Virus record (IMG/VR): IMGVR_UViG_3300028833_000077
Length of the DNA stretch: 64,000 bases
Strand: one strand, 5' to 3'
From: a virus
Lineage: Duplodnaviria; Caudoviricetes
Part shown: positions 582 through 54,752 of the stretch, one piece after another
How the letters are laid out: each line of letters begins with the position of its first letter
Numbering within the stretch: position 1 is the first letter of the stretch
Notes under the pieces: generated by a model
Database searches by the model: none
The model's input: only the letters and a program-made list of their open reading frames with translations
Told to the model about the DNA's origin: nothing
Made by a program: the position numbers and the translations under genes

Positions 582-1736
582 ATGGATAGATATACAGTAT
601 ATAAGCATACTTCTCCCACCAATAAAGTATATATTGGTATTACAAAGAATAAAAAAGCTAGAAACAGGTGGAAGTATGGTCATGGCTATAAGCATAATGC
701 ATATTTTTACAATGCTATTAAAAAGTACGGATGGAACAATATCAAACACGAAATACTGGCTACTAACCTTACCTTAGAAGAAGCCTCTATTATGGAAAAA
801 GAGCTTATTGCTCTATATAAAAATAAAGGTGTTTGTTATAATATAGCTGAGGGAGGTACTGATGGAAATACTCAAAAGAGGACTGAGGAAGAAAAACAGC
901 ATCTTAGTGACTACTTCAAAGAGTATTGGAAAACTCATGAAAATCCTTTCAAAGGCAAACATCATAAAGAAGACAGTTTAGCTGTAATGAGAGAAAAAAA
1001 CAAAAAGCGTTGGAAGGATAACTATGCTAAGATGTATGCGCAGGTAATTGTAAAAGTGAGAATTGGAGTATTTAATATCCTAACACACGAATATCAAGAG
1101 TTTGCATCAGAAAAGGAAGCAGCAGAAAGCTATGGGATAAGCGAAACTACATTTAGAAGGCATGTTAACAATGGTAGTATCTACAAAAATTTTATTTTTA
1201 TTCCTATAGATACTCTATCTTTTGAGGAAGCTCTTATTAAAGCATATAATAGAGAAAAAATGAATATCCATTGTGGAGGGCAAGAGATTGCAGTAGTGCA
1301 ATTAACTTTGGATGGTCAATATGTAGCGACTTATCCTTCCATTAAACAGGCTGCTATAGAAACAGGTTTGGATGATACTGGAATAGGTGAGTCATGTAGA
1401 GGTAATAGAAAACAATCATCTGGTTATTTTTGGATGTTTGAGTCTAAATACTTACATTATAAGGAAGAAGGAAAGCTTGAGTCAGAAATAAAAAAGATGA
1501 AGGAGGATTTAAATAAGCGCAAAGAAATACATGGTACTTATATTTTACAGTCAACAGTAGAGAATATACCTGTAGAAGTCTATATAAGTGGTAAGAGTAT
1601 TACAAGGAAACATGGATTTGATAGTAGTACTATCAGTAAATGCTGCAGGGGAATATTCCATAAAATGTATGGTTATAAATGGGAATACATAACAAAAGAA
1701 GAGTATGAAAAATTTAAGACTATCTTGGCAGCATAA
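582..1736 (+). CDS. Free-standing GIY-YIG homing endonuclease with NUMOD3/NUMOD1-like DNA-binding repeats
   Basis: 'YTVYKHTSPTNKVYIGIT...R...E...YN' GIY-YIG core; 'NPFKGKHH' and repeated 'S..EAA...G...I..CC.G....G..W' modules; visibly more AT-rich than its neighbours. Confidence 0.9.
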   Translation: MDRYTVYKHTSPTNKVYIGITKNKKARNRWKYGHGYKHNAYFYNAIKKYGWNNIKHEILATNLTLEEASIMEKELIALYKNKGVCYNIAEGGTDGNTQKRTEEEKQHLSDYFKEYWKTHENPFKGKHHKEDSLAVMREKNKKRWKDNYAKMYAQVIVKVRIGVFNILTHEYQEFASEKEAAESYGISETTFRRHVNNGSIYKNFIFIPIDTLSFEEALIKAYNREKMNIHCGGQEIAVVQLTLDGQYVATYPSIKQAAIETGLDDTGIGESCRGNRKQSSGYFWMFESKYLHYKEEGKLESEIKKMKEDLNKRKEIHGTYILQSTVENIPVEVYISGKSITRKHGFDSSTISKCCRGIFHKMYGYKWEYITKEEYEKFKTILAA

Positions 1737-6187: not shown

Positions 6188-9100
6188 ATGAAGAAGCAGG
6201 TTGGATTCAAGACCAAGGGAATGAATAGGGACATGAGTGTCTCTGCATTCAATCAGGAGTTTGCCTTTGAGAACATGAACCTCAGGCTCTCCACCAATGA
6301 AGGCAACACTCTCATGAGCTGGGTGAATGAGAAGGGCACAAGTCCCATCACCATTTCCAGAGGCATAGTGGGAGTGGAGAATTTCATCAATGGGTGTGTG
6401 GTAGGCACTGCTGTACTCAATCATTTCCTTATACTGTTTCTGACGAAGTGTTGGGATGAGGGCACCAAGGACTATTATGACTCCATCGTAAGGCTTAAGT
6501 ATGAGGGGACGGACAAGAACAGCATGGTAGCCAAGGTGTTGTACAGTGGTCTTGAGAAGGGCAATCTGGGTTTCATGGTGGAACATCCTCTTGAGACCCT
6601 TGTGTCCTTTGAGAGTGACCATATCCAGAAGGTGTACTGGACAGACGGCATCAACCAGCCTAGGCTCATCAACATTGCCCCAGAGAATGATGGGCACATA
6701 GGCAGATACACCAACACTTCCTTTGACTTTATACCGACCCTACAGCTGAATGAGGACATCCATGTAAAGAAGATACTTGGCGGAGGGGGAATGTTCGCAC
6801 CTGGTGTCATCCAGTATGCCTTCACCTATTATAATAGATATGGGCAGGAATCCAATATATTCTATACTACACCACTGTACTATATCTCTTATGCTGATAG
6901 GGGAGCCTCTCCTGAGGACAAGGTGGACAATGTGTTCAGGATTACTGTAGACAAGCCAGACAGCAACTTCGACTACCTGAGGATATACTCCATCCAGAGG
7001 ACAAGCATCAACAGCACTCCAATGTGCAAGAGGATTCAGGACATTGAGGTGGCTGAAGAACCTAAGAGCGTCAGCTTCACGGATACTGGAACAGCAGGTG
7101 ATTCCATAGATCCTACAGAACTTCTCTACAAGGGGGGACATGGTATTCTTGTAGGCACTATGGAGCAGAAGGATGGAACACTGTTCATGGGAGACATTGT
7201 CACACCTAGCATCAAACATCCTAAGGCAGGGGTCAGCTTGGAGACATCCACAAGGACATTCTATCCCAATGTAGTGTCTACCGACAGCTATGAGTATGCT
7301 AATCAGCTTACCTCATATAAAGATGCCACCAAAGAGGAGAGTGTTCCATGTGCAGGCTTCAAGAAAGGCAACTTCTATAGATGTGGTGTGCAGTTCCAGG
7401 ATGAGCATGGTAGGTGGAGTGATCCTGTATTCCTTGAGAATGTGGAGATAGACATCTCGCCTGAGGCTGTCACCAATGTCAAGGAGGAACCTGAGGGAAC
7501 CTATGACTTTGAACTACGTGAAGTCATCATAGCCAACAACAGCCAGTATCCTCTTGTAATCTCCAACATAGCCAAGTTCGCATTGGTTGGCAAGGATGGG
7601 AAGTTCGTGTTTACAGTGAAATTGGGAAACTTTGACTCTCGCACTATAGAGTCAGGTATGCAGGATGTGTATAACAAGGCAGTCATACTGGATGCCAAGA
7701 AGTACAGTGGCCTCAAGTTCTGCACAAAGGATGAGTACACCAAACTAGGCATGGAGAGCAATGTGTCACTCAAGGCCTATGGTTCCAAGAGAGGATATGT
7801 CCTTACACCCATTACAGCAGGAACTGCCATCAACAGCAGTTCTACCTACACGATTGAATGTACGGAATCATTTGATCCTGCACCTCAGGAAGTGCCGTTT
7901 GATGAGGACTTGGATGGACTGTTGATGTACTTCAATCCTATACTGAAGGCAGCAGGCACCAAAGAAATCACCAATACAGCCACTCCATTGACTTATGCCT
8001 ATCTTAAGGCGGCCTATGACTTGGCAGACACTGAATGGAGCAGTAATGCCCACTCGTTCTTCAGTGCAACAACATATCCTGAGATATACAACGGCAGTGA
8101 CTATCGTGGGACCAATGACACCTATGAAAAGAATGGTACAAGCCAGTTGGCCATGCAGTCTTGGCTGGTAGCCATGTGCCTGTCTGAATTGGCACCTACT
8201 TCAGGAACCAATACCAACACACAGACGGAATTGTTCAAGAAGGCCTATAATTTGATTGATGGCTCTGGTGATGGGAAGAAAGTTCCCCTCTATGGAGGTT
8301 ACACCTTGAAGGGAGACCCTATGATTGCCAGATATGCTGCAGGAGCCATATATGCCCTCAACAGGGCACCCAAGAGTTTCTCCGACATGCAGCAGATGAG
8401 GACTGAGCTCTGGGGAGACAATGCAGATCATTCCATCAATGCCAGTGACTGGTCAGGACTGGAATATTCACCTGACAACTACAAGTTGTCCATGGAGAAT
8501 CTCGGCTATCTTGTCAACACTGATGCTTTCCTGCCAGGGGCATTCGGGCCTTGGGCATCAGGAGAGTTCTACAGTAGCTTCCCCTATGGACAGTCTTCAG
8601 ACCAGTACTACAACAGTCCTACAGAGGCAGGTAGGTTCTGGGAAGCCAATAACTACAAGGTGGATGTCAATATAGACAATACCATTACAGATACCCTGAA
8701 TGGTTATATAGCATATTCTCCTGATGGCAATGGGGGCTATACCTTTGCAGGAAATAAGGAGAAGCTCCAGAGGCTTTTTGAGTCTGCTGTCATAGGAAGG
8801 GCCACTGACTTTGTGTTCTTCGGTAGGAAAAGACTGAAGTACACTAATACTATAGCAGCTACATTGGTAGGACATAATGTGTCACTGCATCGTTTCAGTG
8901 AAACTGATGATAGTATTGCCGATAGTAATGTCTATGAATATACAGGCCCATTCTATTCTGAGCAGCTTCAGGACTATCTGTTCAGCAACCAGGGAACCTA
9001 TACGGCTACAGCTGAAGGCAGTAGCATCACTCAGGAGCTGACTTTCTATGAGAGGAAATCTCCCATGCTGTTCTTGGATGTTGTCAAGGACATTGCCGAC

Positions 9101-41578: not shown

Positions 41579-41586
41579 CAAAGGTA
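41579..41586 (-). promoter_or_regulatory. Bacteroidota -7 promoter element TACCTTTG for the RNAP gene
   Basis: Exact match 20 nt upstream of the RNAP ATG, downstream of a terminator. Confidence 0.7.
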
Positions 41587-49207: not shown

Positions 49208-50023
49208 TCAAGTCTTCTTGGTCTTCCTTCTAGTCTTCCTCTTAGGTGGAGCTGTTTCTTCCTGAGAAGCCTCTTCTACAGGAGGGGCAATCATCTTGGC
49301 ATACTCAGTCCTTGCCATCCTGTCACACTCTTCATTGTACCTATCTCCTGCATGGCCTCTTACCCATTTCAGTGTAGCTTTGATACCTTTGGCTCTGCAT
49401 ATTGACCTATATCTGTCAACTATGTCAAGGTTCTCAGATGCTTCCCATTTCCCACTGAGCACATTGATGCTGTACTGTGAGTCTGAATGAATAACCACTT
49501 CAGCCCCATTGGGAAGGGAGTTCACTACACTGACGATGGCAAGCAGTTCCATCCTGTTTGTTGTGGTGTGGAGGAATCCCTTTGATGTCCTCTTGTACTC
49601 ATTGCCATCCTCACCTATTATTATATAGGCAGAACCCCCAGGCTTGTCAGGATGGAACCAGTTGCCACTGCCATCAGTCCATGCAATGAACTTCTTCTGA
49701 GTGCTCTTGTTGGATGCAATCAGATTGTTCTGCATCACCTTGAAGGCATTTATATCCAGCTTGTCCAAGTACCCTGAAGTGCTTGCATTCTTGTGTGGCT
49801 CATACCACCATCTTACCATGACGGTGTAGTAATCCACAAAGACCTCCATCTTAGAAGGCACACCTTTCGCCTTGCCCCAAACCTTAGTGAAGATGTCTCT
49901 ATTGTAATCATCATCCCTGTAATACTTGAAGCCTTCTGAAGTCAGATAGTCTCTAAGTTCTCCATTTGTCATGTTTGTTATTGCTGTTTTCAATATTGTC
50001 AGTTTACTACTGCTCTCTTCCAT
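49208..50023 (-). CDS. rnhA: Ribonuclease HI with ~110-aa N-terminal extension
   Basis: 'WTDGS', 'TTNRMELLA', 'SDSQY', 'WVRGHAGDRYNEECD' give the complete DEDD catalytic set. Confidence 0.9.
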   Translation of the reverse strand: MEESSSKLTILKTAITNMTNGELRDYLTSEGFKYYRDDDYNRDIFTKVWGKAKGVPSKMEVFVDYYTVMVRWWYEPHKNASTSGYLDKLDINAFKVMQNNLIASNKSTQKKFIAWTDGSGNWFHPDKPGGSAYIIIGEDGNEYKRTSKGFLHTTTNRMELLAIVSVVNSLPNGAEVVIHSDSQYSINVLSGKWEASENLDIVDRYRSICRAKGIKATLKWVRGHAGDRYNEECDRMARTEYAKMIAPPVEEASQEETAPPKRKTRRKTKKT

Positions 50024-50366
50024 CAGCCGTGCAGACCAGGTAATCAGGCTTCTTAGCTGATATCAGAGAGCTTCTTCCTGGTGTGTAAAGAAATTTCACT
50101 CACCAGTTTAACAGAACCTCTCTGTCTCTCTCAGATTGATGGATTTCCAACCAGTATAAACGAGTATCCCCCCTTCAACCAGACTGACTATCTAACAGGT
50201 TAAGCCAGCTTCAGATGTGTGTAGAGTTGCCTGTCTCTGGTGCTGTAGTCATCTTCCAAGCCCCACTATCTCGGTGTGCACCTCCTTGCTGCGAGTGTTC
50301 AGCTCCAACAGCCTAGTACCGATTTATCCCATGCTCCCTAGCGAACCCAGCAGGAACTTCCTCTCT

Positions 50367-50549
50367 TAACTGGTAATGCGAAGCATGTTTAGTAATCGAG
50401 GGTGGTTATCTGAATAAAGGAAAAATCCAGTAAACAGAAAAATTGCAACCCTATAGTAGCTCACAGGTTGCAATTCTCTCCATTTACTGGTATATGAGAA
50501 AAAATCCTTCTACCCAATTATGTCGAAGCAATCAGAGCTACTTGATTAC
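50367..50549 (-). ncRNA. Putative structured leader RNA, copy 2 (two hairpins with complementary loops)
   Basis: 5' hairpin GUAAUCA-AGUAGCUC-UGAUUGC (50549-50528); long hairpin CCAGUAAAUGG...UUGCAACC-UGUGAGCUACUAUAG-GGUUGCAA...UUUACUGG + U-rich tail (50490-50427). Confidence 0.7.
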
Positions 50550-50554
50550 GTGGA

Positions 50555-50562
50555 CAAAGGTA
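50555..50562 (-). promoter_or_regulatory. Bacteroidota -7 promoter element TACCTTTG
   Basis: Exact match just upstream of leader RNA copy 2. Confidence 0.7.
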
Positions 50563-50630
50563 CACATTATAGGTTATATAGTCAAGGACCTAAGAACGAT
50601 ACTAAGGTCAGAGTAGGATTACCCTTAGAT

Positions 50631-51005
50631 TCAGCTACCACAGTGCTCCCCAAACATGGGTTGGAACATGGACTGCTCCATATAGCATATCGGGGAACTG
50701 ATGTTCTTGAACATCCTCTCCTTAGCATCCTTGGAGATACCCACCAACCTTCCTGTGCGGTAGGGGTTATTTCCTGACTCCCCATCCTTGACCTCAATGA
50801 TGAGCAGGCCCTTCTGGTCTACCACATTCTGACAGTCGTCACACAGTCCCATGTAGACATCCTTTGGGGCCTCTTGGTCTCCCTTGAGCTTTCCCATCAA
50901 AGCTACTCCTATCTCCTTGCCACAACACTCACAATGGGTAATGCTTGGATTGAGCCCATGCTTTGGTGACAGCTGTATTGAACCTTTCTTTCTTGCCATA
51001 ATCAA
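50631..51005 (-). CDS. Hypothetical zinc-binding protein
   Basis: 'LSPKHGLNPSI..CECCG....CDDC'. Confidence 0.7.
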   Translation of the reverse strand: MIMARKKGSIQLSPKHGLNPSITHCECCGKEIGVALMGKLKGDQEAPKDVYMGLCDDCQNVVDQKGLLIIEVKDGESGNNPYRTGRLVGISKDAKERMFKNISSPICYMEQSMFQPMFGEHCGS

Positions 51006-51247
51006 TTCTGATGTTGTTCCCTAATCATTTCCATGGGAGTAACCTTCTCCCAAGCCCCGCAGTGAGGGCAGTGGAAGTTGTACTCCTCCACATGCCCCTT
51101 CTGGTCATAGTTGTCCCTCATGTGCTTCATCCTCTTGCCACAGTAGGGACATTTTCTGTTGTAGAATGCCAAGGCTATGCCGATGAATATGTTGAGGAAC
51201 ACCAGCATCACCATGCACAGCAGTACAAGAATTATCGTACCTAACAT
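51002..51247 (-). CDS. Membrane-anchored zinc-ribbon protein (start taken at MLGTII)
   Basis: N-terminal hydrophobic helix followed by CPYCG...CPHCG. Confidence 0.65.
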   Translation of the reverse strand: MLGTIILVLLCMVMLVFLNIFIGIALAFYNRKCPYCGKRMKHMRDNYDQKGHVEEYNFHCPHCGAWEKVTPMEMIREQHQN

Positions 51248-51248
51248 A

Positions 51249-51695
51249 TCAATCCTGTTCAAAGTCAGTTTCATCCTCAGTCCAGCACTCACACTCTTCG
51301 ATGAGTCCCTTGAGCCTTCTTACCTTAGTAGCCTTGAAGCTTCTGTCACCAGGAAGCATGTCCTTCTGGATTTCCCTGAGGTCCTTCTCAAGGTATTCCT
51401 GCAGCATTTGTATAAGCTGCAAAGGAGTCTTGTAGCCATTGCTTTCATACTCCTTAGACCAATCAGTATCAGAGGTATCATCAGGATCCTGCCAGCCAGA
51501 TGCACAGCAGCTCTCACCATCATAGTCATAGTCAACACCTGATGCACCAGGGATATAGTCGTTTGTCCATACAGAGGCAGTTCTGCTCAGTGACTGGCTG
51601 CATGTTACTTCAAACTCCTTCTCAGGGATATCACAATCGGCCCATGGAGCCCCCGGAGTTGAGTCACTCAAACCGTCTGGATAATTTGATAACAT
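51249..51695 (-). CDS. Hypothetical acidic protein
   Basis: 148 aa; 'NYPDG....PGAPW' N-terminus. Confidence 0.65.
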   Translation of the reverse strand: MLSNYPDGLSDSTPGAPWADCDIPEKEFEVTCSQSLSRTASVWTNDYIPGASGVDYDYDGESCCASGWQDPDDTSDTDWSKEYESNGYKTPLQLIQMLQEYLEKDLREIQKDMLPGDRSFKATKVRRLKGLIEECECWTEDETDFEQD

Positions 51696-51701
51696 ATTCG
51701 T

Positions 51702-52013
51702 CTATTCCTTCTTTAAAATGTTGATTCTGTCTTGGATATAGAACATGGCCTTCTCCAAGTCCTCTATCTCCTTCTCCTTGCTTGACATGCCTTCCTCAGA
51801 CTTCAGTCCTGCCCTCCATAGATACTTGACGGCATTGCCTTTCCATGTAGGCATGTCCCTTATCACATCAATGCACTCTAGGTTCACATCGAAGTCTGCA
51901 TCACATACTGCACAACGCAGTTTCAGTACAGGGCCGCCATGTGTGTAGTGGTAGGGATGGTTTACTCTGTCATACTCTTCTTCCTTCCCTACATTTCCTA
52001 TTATCTGTTCCAT
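51702..52013 (-). CDS. DUF3310-family protein (T7 gp1.7 nucleotide-kinase-like; start taken at MEQIIG)
   Basis: 'DRVNHPYHY...ECIDVI...GNAVKYLWRAG.K...EDLEKA.FYI'. Confidence 0.8.
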   Translation of the reverse strand: MEQIIGNVGKEEEYDRVNHPYHYTHGGPVLKLRCAVCDADFDVNLECIDVIRDMPTWKGNAVKYLWRAGLKSEEGMSSKEKEIEDLEKAMFYIQDRINILKKE

Positions 52014-52023
52014 GATAAATTCT

Positions 52024-52134
52024 TTAAATCGGTTCATACTCATCTGGCGTGCAGGGAGTCCTGCCCAGTTCATATATGAATAGGGCAATGACTCCTACCA
52101 AATATATACCCATGATAATGGCTATAGTCTTCAT
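52024..52134 (-). CDS. Small membrane protein (36 aa, not in ORF track)
   Basis: MKTIAIIMGIYLVGVIALFIYELGRTPCTPDEYEPI; single hydrophobic helix. Confidence 0.5.
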   Translation of the reverse strand: MKTIAIIMGIYLVGVIALFIYELGRTPCTPDEYEPI

Positions 52135-52147
52135 AGATGTCTGGTCT

Positions 52148-52576
52148 TTAGGGTTGTACTACATCATCGAGGTACTCATAGTCCACTTGGATGATTCCCT
52201 CAATGGTCATGTCATAGCCCTGACGGGCAAGCTTCTGAGTGTTTATATGGGCCTCTGAGAGGTCATTGGCCCAGATGAGCACCTTGTACTTTAGTGACTT
52301 CTCAGTACCGTCATCAGCCAGCCATACATCCTTTAAGGTGGCAATGAAGGTACTGTCACCAGTGAACTGGTTGGCGACCTCCTTCAATGGAGACATCCTC
52401 AGTGACTGTATGGAGAAGTCCTCCACAGAGCCATCCGTCTGTTCCTGTGCCAGCTTGGCCATTACATCATACTCTGCCTCTGCAAACAGTTCCCTGTTCA
52501 GCAGGAGCGTCTCAGTTCTCTTCCTTGTCTTGCCATCAATGACTCTGGCAACCTTCACTTTCACTTCAATCAGCAT
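52148..52576 (-). CDS. DUF4494-like protein
   Basis: 'EVKVKV....DGK.RKRTE..L....FAEAE...D.GTEK.....LI.A.DL.EA' pattern of the Bacteroidota DUF4494 family. Confidence 0.65.
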   Translation of the reverse strand: MLIEVKVKVARVIDGKTRKRTETLLLNRELFAEAEYDVMAKLAQEQTDGSVEDFSIQSLRMSPLKEVANQFTGDSTFIATLKDVWLADDGTEKSLKYKVLIWANDLSEAHINTQKLARQGYDMTIEGIIQVDYEYLDDVVQP

Positions 52577-52594
52577 ATTCTTTCTTTTTATACA

Positions 52595-52864
52595 TTAAAT
52601 TGCATTTCCCCTCGGATAAATCTCATTCACATAGCACCATCCATCCACTTTCGGACTGAAGAGGCTTATGGGCCCTGAATGGTTCTCAGCCCAGCACTCA
52701 TTGGTATCCTTGTCATAGCTGTAAGCTGTGTATATGCTGCCTTCCATAGCTATGAGGATACCTCCCATCTCATGGAAGTCCAGTATGGGCTTCACATGAT
52801 ACGAATACCAGTTGACTCTCATAAGGCTGATACATCTAGACCATTCTCCTCCATCCTTGCACAT
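52595..52864 (-). CDS. Hypothetical protein
   Basis: 89-aa ORF; true start uncertain. Confidence 0.5.
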   Translation of the reverse strand: MCKDGGEWSRCISLMRVNWYSYHVKPILDFHEMGGILIAMEGSIYTAYSYDKDTNECWAENHSGPISLFSPKVDGWCYVNEIYPRGNAI

Positions 52865-53085
52865 ATATAGTCATTCCTGACCCTTGCCAGTTCGTTGACT
52901 ATCTCCTTGGGAGACCACTCGTCCTTTACAGGAACAAGTGGGATTCCTTGATGAGCAAAGTATACAGTGCCCTTGAAGTCAGTCAGAGTGATGACATCCT
53001 CTGCCATCCTCTCAATGTCTCTCTTACGGGAGGACTGGTGTCTCTCCCTCAGTGTGCTGAAGAATCCCATGTTCAATTCCCCCAA
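52819..53085 (-). CDS. Hypothetical protein
   Basis: 88-aa ORF (likely start MGFFST). Confidence 0.6.
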   Translation of the reverse strand: MGELNMGFFSTLRERHQSSRKRDIERMAEDVITLTDFKGTVYFAHQGIPLVPVKDEWSPKEIVNELARVRNDYICARMEENGLDVSAL

Positions 53086-53801
53086 TTTAGACCTATTGCC
53101 TTGAAGAGGCTCTTCAGGAATAGTACCTTCCTCTTCCCTATACCCCTCTCCTTGCGTATCAACTCCTCTGGATCGGACACATAGACCTTTCCAAGAGTAC
53201 CATACTTGTTGATGGTGTTCTTGATGCCTCCATCCAATTGGATGTTGATGTCCTCCAACTCAGTGCCACTGAGCTCAAGCACATCTTTGACTGATGCTCC
53301 TAAGGAATCAAACACCTTCTTGTTGCTCTCATAGGGAGGAATATCTTCCTTCTTCTCCTTCTTCACTTCCTTCCTCTCCTGCTTCTTTGAGGAGTCTATT
53401 GTCATGGCAACAGTTCCTGAAGGCTGGCTAATCCTATAGGTTGCATAATCCCCACTATTGGCCATGTTGTCCGATATGTCCAGCTCAGTATCCTTCTTCA
53501 GATTGAAGTGGTTCTGGATGAAGTCAATCAAGAGCTTTCCCCTGAGAGAGAATGTCTGGTCTGCCGTAGGAGCAGTGATGCCGAATCCTTTTGACTTGTT
53601 GAAGATAAAGTAGAGGCTCTTGGAGTCATCACCCACACCTACATTGCAATAGGTAGGACGAAGCTTGGCAAGCTCCTTGGTGATGCTCTTGTTGAAGACA
53701 ATCCTCTTGTCCTTGTTTTCAATCCTGACACGCACAGTATTCTTGCCTATACCCATTCGGCATGTAGCAGAATTCAAGTCAATAAATGTAATGTGTTCCA
53801 T
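53073..53801 (-). CDS. Hypothetical protein with C-terminal RNA polymerase alpha-CTD-like helix-hairpin-helix
   Basis: 'LEDINIQL...IKNTINKYGTLGKVYVSDPEELIRKERGIGKRKVLFLKSLFKAIGL' resembles the alpha-CTD consensus. Confidence 0.55.
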   Translation of the reverse strand: MEHITFIDLNSATCRMGIGKNTVRVRIENKDKRIVFNKSITKELAKLRPTYCNVGVGDDSKSLYFIFNKSKGFGITAPTADQTFSLRGKLLIDFIQNHFNLKKDTELDISDNMANSGDYATYRISQPSGTVAMTIDSSKKQERKEVKKEKKEDIPPYESNKKVFDSLGASVKDVLELSGTELEDINIQLDGGIKNTINKYGTLGKVYVSDPEELIRKERGIGKRKVLFLKSLFKAIGLNWGN

Positions 53802-53812
53802 TCTTAGTCGTT

Positions 53813-53938
53813 TTAATATTCATGATACATTTCATATAAATCGAGAAGCTCCTCAACAGGAGTGTGGTCCACCACCTCACTTGTCCATCCTTGAACATTG
53901 GTGAAGTAATCTCTCAGTTCTTTTTCAGTTATTGGCAT
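53813..53938 (-). CDS. Small hypothetical protein (41 aa, not in ORF track)
   Basis: MPITEKELRDYFTNVQGWTSEVVDHTPVEELLDLYEMYHEY between polA and the next gene. Confidence 0.55.
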   Translation of the reverse strand: MPITEKELRDYFTNVQGWTSEVVDHTPVEELLDLYEMYHEY

Positions 53939-53948
53939 AGCGTTAGTG

Positions 53949-54752
53949 TTAATGAATCCAATGTGTCCCGATTTCTGCTTCTGCGGGGATGGGTAGCTTT
54001 GTGCATACTAGAGCAGCAGCAGATTCCATGCATTCCTTTAGTTTAACAGGCACAATGTTATGTAGTGCTTCAGGGTAAATGATGTCACTTTCATCATGGA
54101 CCAGTGCAGCAAACTCCACTTTTCCAAAATACCCACTGTCTACAACCCAATTGAAGAAGTTTGTCATAGCTATCTTCAGGATGACACAGCCAGAGCCTTG
54201 TGTTGGAGCATTAAGTGCCATACGGTCCCACTTTGATGCTGCCCTGAAGTGCATGGACACCTCTTGTGCTATAGCATCACCAGTTCCTTTATGTCTTAGT
54301 CTATACTCTTCCCAAAATTCTTGAGTGAAGGACTTCTGCCTTTCAAGCCATTCCTTGTGATCCCACCAGTACATCTTATGACCACTGTACTTGCACATCA
54401 GGATATATCCATTCTGTCTGACAAATTCAGAGCCTTTCTTCTTGAAGTCTGCAATTCCCTTAAATCTGTTATAATAGGCATCCACATAATGTTGGGCTTC
54501 TTCCTCGGATATTGCAAGCTGTGTTGCAAGTCCAAAGGCAGATCCACCGAACTGAATCAAAAACTCAGGACTCTTGGAACGCTTCCTCAGCTCAGGATAC
54601 TTCTTCTTGATTTCCTTGGTAGTAATACCCGGCTCCATCTGATCTGCAAAGAATGTCTGTGCCATCAAAGAATGAATGTCCCCACTGCCATGCAGGAACT
54701 CTTCTATCATATGGGGCTCATTGTAAATGTCAGCTCCTAGGCGACTTTCTAG
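53949..54752 (-). CDS. polA: DNA polymerase family A, exon 2
   Basis: Begins LESRLGA (second half of motif A); 'GDIHS', motif B 'RKRSKSPEF..QFG', 'RMALNAPTQGSG', motif C 'LVHDE'. Confidence 0.9.
   Translation of the reverse strand, partial: LESRLGADIYNEPHMIEEFLHGSGDIHSLMAQTFFADQMEPGITTKEIKKKYPELRKRSKSPEFLIQFGGSAFGLATQLAISEEEAQHYVDAYYNRFKGIADFKKKGSEFVRQNGYILMCKYSGHKMYWWDHKEWLERQKSFTQEFWEEYRLRHKGTGDAIAQEVSMHFRAASKWDRMALNAPTQGSGCVILKIAMTNFFNWVVDSGYFGKVEFAALVHDESDIIYPEALHNIVPVKLKECMESAAALVCTKLPIPAEAEIGTHWIH

Follow-up and report, generated by a model that had tools for sequence, protein, structure and literature searches.

A promoter-linked RNA module with covarying kissing loops in crAss-like phages, a candidate transcription gate

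In cobalamin riboswitches, the L5-L13 kissing loop joins, inside a single leader, an upstream hairpin loop to that of a regulatory hairpin further downstream, in some cases a terminator, and this contact covaries. The lambdoid PR'-6S RNA-tR' unit, which is released by Q, consists of a host-type promoter followed 140-190 nt later by a terminator located ahead of a whole operon, and produces a short RNA by default. In the ColE1 RNA II/RNA I/Rom system, a structured non-coding transcript of ~550 nt has kissing hairpins within its first ~150 nt, with a link to RNase H and a family-A polymerase. In P4 (CI with seqA/seqC) and P1/P7 (c4), RNA-RNA complementarity involving the leader controls premature termination or expression, and matched mutations shift its specificity. 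Finally, put of phage HK022 is a two-hairpin cis-acting RNA located directly downstream of promoters, which is present in two copies per genome and acts on elongation.

We describe here an RNA module sharing features with each of these systems, found in a 64,000-nt stretch of viral DNA (IMG/VR record IMGVR_UViG_3300028833_000077), referred to below as the window. In contrast to the cobalamin riboswitch, the module contains no ligand aptamer and matches no Rfam riboswitch, its spacer is short and variable, and the upstream partner of the loop contact is the 5'-terminal hairpin. The lambda leader has no covarying loop contact, and no Q-like protein or site was identified in our phage. Unlike ColE1, the pairing is intramolecular, no antisense promoter is present, two DNA segments must mutate together, and the RNase H gene is the cargo; priming would be predicted at most. 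A shape-specific protein comparable to Rom could also read the kissing complex in this case. The P4 and P1/P7 RNAs are processed and act in trans on a nascent leader, whereas both loops of the module belong to the same RNA, ~80 nt apart. The put RNA has neither loop complementarity nor a terminator of its own, and its sequence is conserved whereas that of the module is variable. Thus, none of these systems is a family match for the module, which has no Rfam counterpart, no aptamer, and no countertranscript promoter, and whose loop sequences are free to vary.

The window originates from a crAss-like phage. The C-terminal part of the product of a 1497-aa gene shares ~31% identity with the protein called 'RNA polymerase subunit' in crAss001-like Bacteroides phages, and the gene order fits this assignment: the plus strand carries the structural genes, and the minus strand the replication genes and the giant polymerase genes. 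In gut and rumen microbiomes, few viruses are more abundant than crAss-like phages and, to our knowledge, almost nothing is known about the control of their gene expression after the host RNA polymerase takes over.

The window contains two copies of the module, both on the minus strand. Copy 2 (50562-50421) starts with a TA-nn-TTTG box (50562-50555), and hairpin A (50549-50528) begins five bases after this box. Hairpin A consists of a 7-bp stem (50549-50543 paired with 50534-50528) and of an 8-nt loop (50542-50535) that provides one of the kissing partners. A single-stranded 6-nt word located just 3' of hairpin A (50524-50519) recurs among the instances of the module identified in related phages: it is exactly conserved in window copy 1, L012, L014, and L035, differs by one change in L032, and is present in a near form in L001. 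Hairpin B (50490-50427) contains ~25 bp, one bulge (5' strand, 50490-50466; 3' strand, 50450-50427), and a 15-nt loop (50465-50451). It is followed, one base past the stem, by a run of five U resembling a terminator tail (50425-50421). The 8 nt of loop A (50542-50535) are perfectly complementary to positions 50462-50455 within loop B. The promoter, the two hairpins, and the perfect loop complementarity had been proposed for copy 2 in a first-pass annotation of the window, and all of them are confirmed. The same annotation had drawn attention to a recurring 9-nt word further downstream (50375-50367). The word is present, and it lies outside the conserved module, belonging to a hairpin of the downstream leader in the related phages. 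Since it is unchanged in L014 although the base of hairpin B differs there, this word is not a conserved part of the module.

Folding of the copy 2 region with RNAfold yielded a z-score of -5.35 relative to dinucleotide shuffles, with both hairpins formed, and shuffling of loop B generated an 8-nt match in only 31 of 200000 trials. The window was scanned for hairpins located at most 14 nt from a TA-nn-TTTG box and possessing a loop complement of at least 7 nt downstream. Two of the 40 TA-nn-TTTG sites of the window displayed this architecture, and these were copies 1 and 2. A promoter-independent scan gave additional matches about as numerous as those in shuffled or reversed controls, and only promoter-coupled matches were therefore counted as instances.

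The TA-nn-TTTG motif is the -7 element of Bacteroidota sigma-A promoters, in which a -33 TTTG element is located ~19-21 nt upstream. Copy 2 matches the -7 element in sequence and additionally possesses a weak -33-like element (50585-50582; three of the four letters of TTTG) 20 nt upstream of the -7 box, a spacing that agrees with the Bacteroidota promoter consensus. A full TTTG is present 19-20 nt upstream of the -7 box in L001, L002, and L021, and none is found in window copy 1. The TA-nn-TTTG box was found 2-9 nt before the start of the module in all 12 instances identified in this study, and also precedes other intergenic gene starts of the phage, at 41586 (minus strand) and 13739 (plus strand). 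The 13-nt promoter context that had been reported as shared between the two copies does occur exactly twice in the window (50567-50555 and 27481-27469, minus strand); what the copies share is simply a host-type -7 box. Since the motif is a Bacteroidota box that also precedes other genes of the phage, the module starts with what is, by its sequence, a host-type promoter, and hairpin A is predicted to lie at the 5' end of the transcript or within a few nucleotides of it.

Copy 1 (27476-27332, minus strand) has the same build as copy 2 and scores 165 bits with our covariance model R1. Its loops pair over 7 nt (27456-27450 with 27372-27366). Thus, as first annotated, one RNA scaffold is present twice in the genome. 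It had also been claimed that the loops of copy 1 cannot pair with those of copy 2, and the longest cross-pairing runs are indeed only 2-3 nt. The "insulated specificity" deduced from this observation holds for the non-complementarity of the sequences; because two 8-mers that have diverged will be non-complementary simply by chance, orthogonality of the two copies is no proof that it has been selected.

Ten further instances of the module were obtained from related uncultured crAss-like phages, by using DNA patterns, relatives of the RNase H encoded downstream from copy 2, and the contigs harboring these relatives. Loops A and B are located, respectively, at 6219-6225 and 6303-6309 in L001, 2080-2087 and 2160-2167 in L012, 2429-2436 and 2513-2520 in L013, 2029-2035 and 2105-2111 in L014, 1410-1418 and 1487-1495 in L002, 2061-2066 and 2137-2142 in L021, 369-375 and 451-457 in L035, 470-475 and 543-548 in L038, and, on the minus strand, at 674-668 and 609-603 in L032 and at 3142-3136 and 3067-3061 in L036. 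Model R1 only detects close relatives and misses L014, L002, and L021; searches of loci with single proteins yielded few relatives, and no module was found in L023, a 116-kb relative.

The 12 instances (two in the window and ten in the relatives) display 10 different loop pairs. Watson-Crick runs between cognate loops extend over 6-9 nt, as compared to a mean of 3.2 nt for non-cognate combinations of the 12 instances, and none of 100000 random re-pairings of the loops reached the observed summed run length. Shuffling of loop B in individual instances gave p values of 1e-4 to 6e-2. Single compensated changes in the loops distinguish close relatives, namely window copy 1 from L001 and L035 from L036. 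A run of at least 4 U follows hairpin B in each of the 12 instances, while the length of B varies from 11 to 28 bp.

Five sequences could be aligned (alignment A5), and pair counts were compared with those obtained after shuffling of columns or sliding of the partners. Base pairs were found in 97.8% of the cells, as compared to 88% in column shuffles and 31-46% with slid partners. Thirteen pairs changed on both sides, including four within the kissing helix. In this helix, 95% of the cells were paired and four of the eight pairs changed on both sides. The same was true of three of the seven pairs of the hairpin A stem and of six pairs in the two helices of hairpin B (helices 3 and 4), in which 98.6% and 100% of the cells were paired. 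The proposed covariation of the loops is thus borne out by the double changes in the kissing helix and by the diversity of the loop pairs. Judged by this pattern of substitutions, the kissing pairing is a real RNA element maintained by matched mutations, far beyond chance.

Both stems, and in particular hairpin B, which has several, contain G-U pairs that would be mismatches on the opposite strand, indicating that the RNA is transcribed from the module in the minus-strand orientation. The stem of hairpin A covaries and its sequences in L014, L002, and L032 are unrelated. Therefore, A is a true hairpin, which makes the contact a kissing complex and not simply a long-range helix. The possibility that A forms a longer, conserved duplex with the top of B was considered and rejected: such a duplex can form in copy 1 and L001 only, and not in copy 2, L013, or L014, indicating that the loops alone are the conserved partners.

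The module was not found in catalogued sequences. In Rfam, no match reached the gathering score in the window, only chance-level matches were found at E values up to 5 around both copies, and none was obtained at E values up to 0.5 in five related loci. Among GenBank phages, blastn with both copies gave no match and tblastn with the RNase H gave distant matches only. A word of the leader following copy 2 had no match in scans of IMG/VR, JGI metagenomes, and GTDB genomes, and the hairpin B pattern retrieved only L001 in IMG/VR and nothing in genomes. In the cultured crAss-like phages crAss001 and phi14:2 (first 50 kb), matches were at chance level only and the module was absent. Literature searches returned no description of the element. 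Thus, the RNA element is uncatalogued, having no match in Rfam, GenBank phages, or the literature searched.

Comparison of the window with L012 revealed that the module is associated with different cargoes. The two phages are 92-93% identical over several kilobases, and their homology spans the module, stops at 50421, which is the last U of the run, and resumes at 49695 inside the RNase H gene. Between these positions, the window harbors the non-coding leader (400 nt) and the part of the RNase H gene encoding the N-terminal domain. At the same place, L012 contains an open reading frame of 254 aa starting at the U run and a different N-terminal part. The breakpoints of this cassette swap (50421 and 49695 in the window; 2201 and 3278 in L012) coincide with the end of the U run and with the point where the RNase H catalytic domain begins. 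The L013 module, which has the L001 loop pair, is located behind the giant gene, i.e. at the position of copy 1, and is followed by a leader of the copy 2 family and by RNase H. Together, the L013 arrangement and the L012 cargo indicate that loops, scaffold, and cargo assort independently. The scaffold is therefore modular, as the annotation had suggested, since the same module precedes different cargoes with a recombination breakpoint immediately after the U run.

The leaders located behind the modules are long (300-500 nt). Copy 2 is separated from the start codon of the RNase H gene by a conserved structured RNA of ~400 nt (50420-50024, minus strand), in which a long-range helix closes a ~300-nt domain. 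This region is non-coding, with all three stop codons in all three frames. The possibility that the long leaders are recoded genes was ruled out on the same basis. The leader of copy 2 is strongly conserved in L013 (2560-3000) and L014 (2150-2571), phages whose RNase H proteins are only 52-54% identical. This leader is thus more conserved than the protein encoded behind it and has no Rfam match, making it a candidate new large structured RNA. The first gene behind it (50023-49208, minus strand) encodes an RNase H of 271 aa (Pfam PF00075, E = 8e-20; PHROG 531) comprising an uncharacterized N-terminal region of 108 aa followed by a type-1 RNase H domain.

A second conserved structured non-coding RNA, unrelated to the copy 2 leader, is located behind copy 1 (27331-26990, minus strand). 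It is 75% identical to a segment of L001 (6338-6720), is also found in L032 (215-585, minus strand), and displays compensatory changes in its hairpins together with variable inserted hairpins. This RNA precedes an RNase H gene in L001 and a gene encoding a P63C-domain protein in the window. A third family of leaders is represented in L002 (1520-2003), L021 (2175-2500), L035, L036, and L038, which share conserved blocks including, close to the 3' end, a G-rich word with a C-rich partner. Comparison of the three families by nhmmer detected no sequence similarity, and none of them matches Rfam; by eye, short blocks of the third family resemble blocks of the other two. Members of all three families lead into RNase H genes, as observed for window copy 2, L013, and L014, for L001, and for L002, L021, and L038, the exception being window copy 1 with its P63C-domain gene. 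L001 and L038 were found via the RNA sequence and not via RNase H.

We propose, with about even confidence, that the module is a promoter-proximal transcription gate, or attenuator, built on an intramolecular kissing complex. According to this model, copy 2 would form the first ~140 nt of a transcript of the host RNA polymerase, as a self-contained promoter and leader. Hairpin A would fold at the 5' end immediately after being transcribed. Loop B would emerge ~75-85 nt later and pair with loop A over 6-9 bp, and hairpin B would then close as a long stem which, together with the U run, has the shape of an intrinsic terminator. The polymerase would either stop at the U run, releasing a short capped-off RNA as the default product, or continue into the leader and transcribe the RNase H operon, generating the operon mRNA. 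The kissing contact would set the choice between stopping and reading on, or let a factor set it, whether by raising or by lowering termination. A phage or host factor recognizing the shape of the complex may take part, as Rom does for the ColE1 kissing complexes. Termination at hairpin B and modulation of its efficiency by the contact are both features that we infer.

The order of events in this model is supported by nascent-RNA folds computed up to the end of loop B, in which the helix between the two loops was part of the minimum-energy structure in all nine instances tested, indicating that the kissing contact can form before the 3' strand of B exists. No further TA-nn-TTTG box is present between hairpin B and the RNase H start. 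Together with the L012 open reading frame that starts at the U run, this suggests that expression of the downstream genes needs read-through. The gating of two transcription units proposed in the first-pass annotation is suggested by the terminator-like hairpin B and by the lack of a promoter box before the gene. Hairpin B combines a stable 25-bp stem with an immediate run of five U, as expected for an intrinsic terminator; its apical loop (12-17 nt across the instances) is longer than the 3-8 nt of such structures, and a terminator consensus scan of positions 49900-50800 called none. A helix between the 3' base of B and the segment just past the U run appeared by eye to be recurrent in several instances, and an automated test, which mislocated B in several cases, gave no significance; no conserved alternative antiterminator pairing was found. 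Further considerations weigh against the gate. Given the stability of hairpin B (~25 bp), a contact at the tip of its stem, far from the polymerase, may have no influence on termination, and a large structured RNA usually follows, so that the module could be the 5' domain of this RNA.

Several other functions may be envisioned for the module. It might be a gene for a stable small RNA of ~135 nt, in which the kissing contact would provide a compact nuclease-resistant fold displaying the spacer of 40-55 nt, with its conserved 6-nt word, to act in trans on RNA or protein, read-through being incidental. Each of the 12 instances combines a promoter box with a terminator-like end, the single-stranded word at 50524-50519 is conserved, and a 5'-terminal hairpin combined with a 3' hairpin is a classic RNA-stabilizing arrangement. 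We nevertheless consider this function unlikely, since no other part of the module is as poorly conserved between close relatives as the spacer, no separate promoter box precedes the downstream genes, and the L012 open reading frame begins at the U run. The L012 arrangement, in which the module directly precedes a protein gene, also argues against a role in replication. In that proposal, the module would be the 5' control domain of an RNA-primed origin similar to ColE1 RNA II, producing a structured pre-primer or R-loop RNA of ~540 nt to be processed by RNase H for the family-A polymerase, and the kissing complex, by itself or through a Rom-like factor recognizing it, would set the frequency or folding of the pre-primer. 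The finding of three dissimilar leader families that are each flanked by a kissing module and an RNase H gene is in agreement with such a role, the more so because L001 and L038 were retrieved by their RNA; L001 and L013 even carry different leader families before RNase H at the same locus behind the giant gene, and the phage encodes a family-A DNA polymerase. A pre-primer is nonetheless quite improbable in view of the P63C gene located behind the copy 1 RNA, the absence of plus-strand TA-nn-TTTG boxes from positions 49384-53994, i.e. of an antisense promoter box nearby, and the predicted pairing of the leader G runs inside the RNA. In addition, ribonuclease genes, such as rne, rnc, and pnp, are often autoregulated through long leaders, which offers another explanation for the link with RNase H.

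The position of hairpin A within a few nucleotides of the expected start site, and the near-perfect 25-bp duplex formed by B in the window copies, would also suit a 5' stabilizer or processing site of the mRNA, in which A and the B duplex, a plausible RNase III substrate, would protect or mature the operon mRNA, the kissing contact serving only for compaction and the U run being unused. This function appears very improbable because the U run is kept in 12 of 12 instances although B varies between 11 and 28 bp, and because such a role would not in itself require a compensated loop-loop contact. Inverted repeats acting at the DNA level, as sites for a protein or a recombinase, would account for the recombination breakpoint at the 3' edge of the module. 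They are hardly credible, as is a chance match: the repeats retain their complementarity although their sequence differs in nearly every instance, a pattern incompatible with a protein site, the G-U pairs of both stems function only in the minus-strand RNA, and chance is excluded by the loop shuffles and the random re-pairings.

If the module does act as a transcription gate, its always-matched and freely changing loops would define a new design for such gates and provide naturally orthogonal parts. Since it is consistently located ahead of RNase H genes and of large structured RNAs that are uncatalogued, the module suggests a connection with the RNA biology of phage replication or with nuclease control.

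Additional features were observed in the vicinity of some modules and elsewhere in these genomes. In L021 (~1925-1985) and L036 (minus strand, upstream of 3160), three to four direct repeats of a 9-11-nt unit are present 60-100 nt upstream of the module promoter and could be putative binding sites for a regulator or an initiator. In L002 (~1171-1330; G002 1736), a second promoter box, ~220 nt ahead of the module, precedes a small hairpin with a 9-nt complement ~85 nt downstream, which is beside another hairpin and not in its loop; this could represent a distinct small leader or have arisen by chance. The family-A DNA polymerase of the window (57076-53949, minus strand) looks split, since the 3'-5' exonuclease is encoded in an open reading frame of 417 aa together with no more than the initial part of the polymerase domain, ahead of additional open reading frames; the interruption may be due to an intron or a homing endonuclease. 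A free-standing homing endonuclease with GIY-YIG-type and NUMOD/I-HmuI-like domains is encoded at 582-1736 (plus strand) of the window. Finally, a gene-free gap of ~900 nt in crAss001 (95964-96870, corresponding to L031 45964-46870) adjoins a TROVE (Ro60-like) gene and could encode a Y-RNA-like partner RNA.
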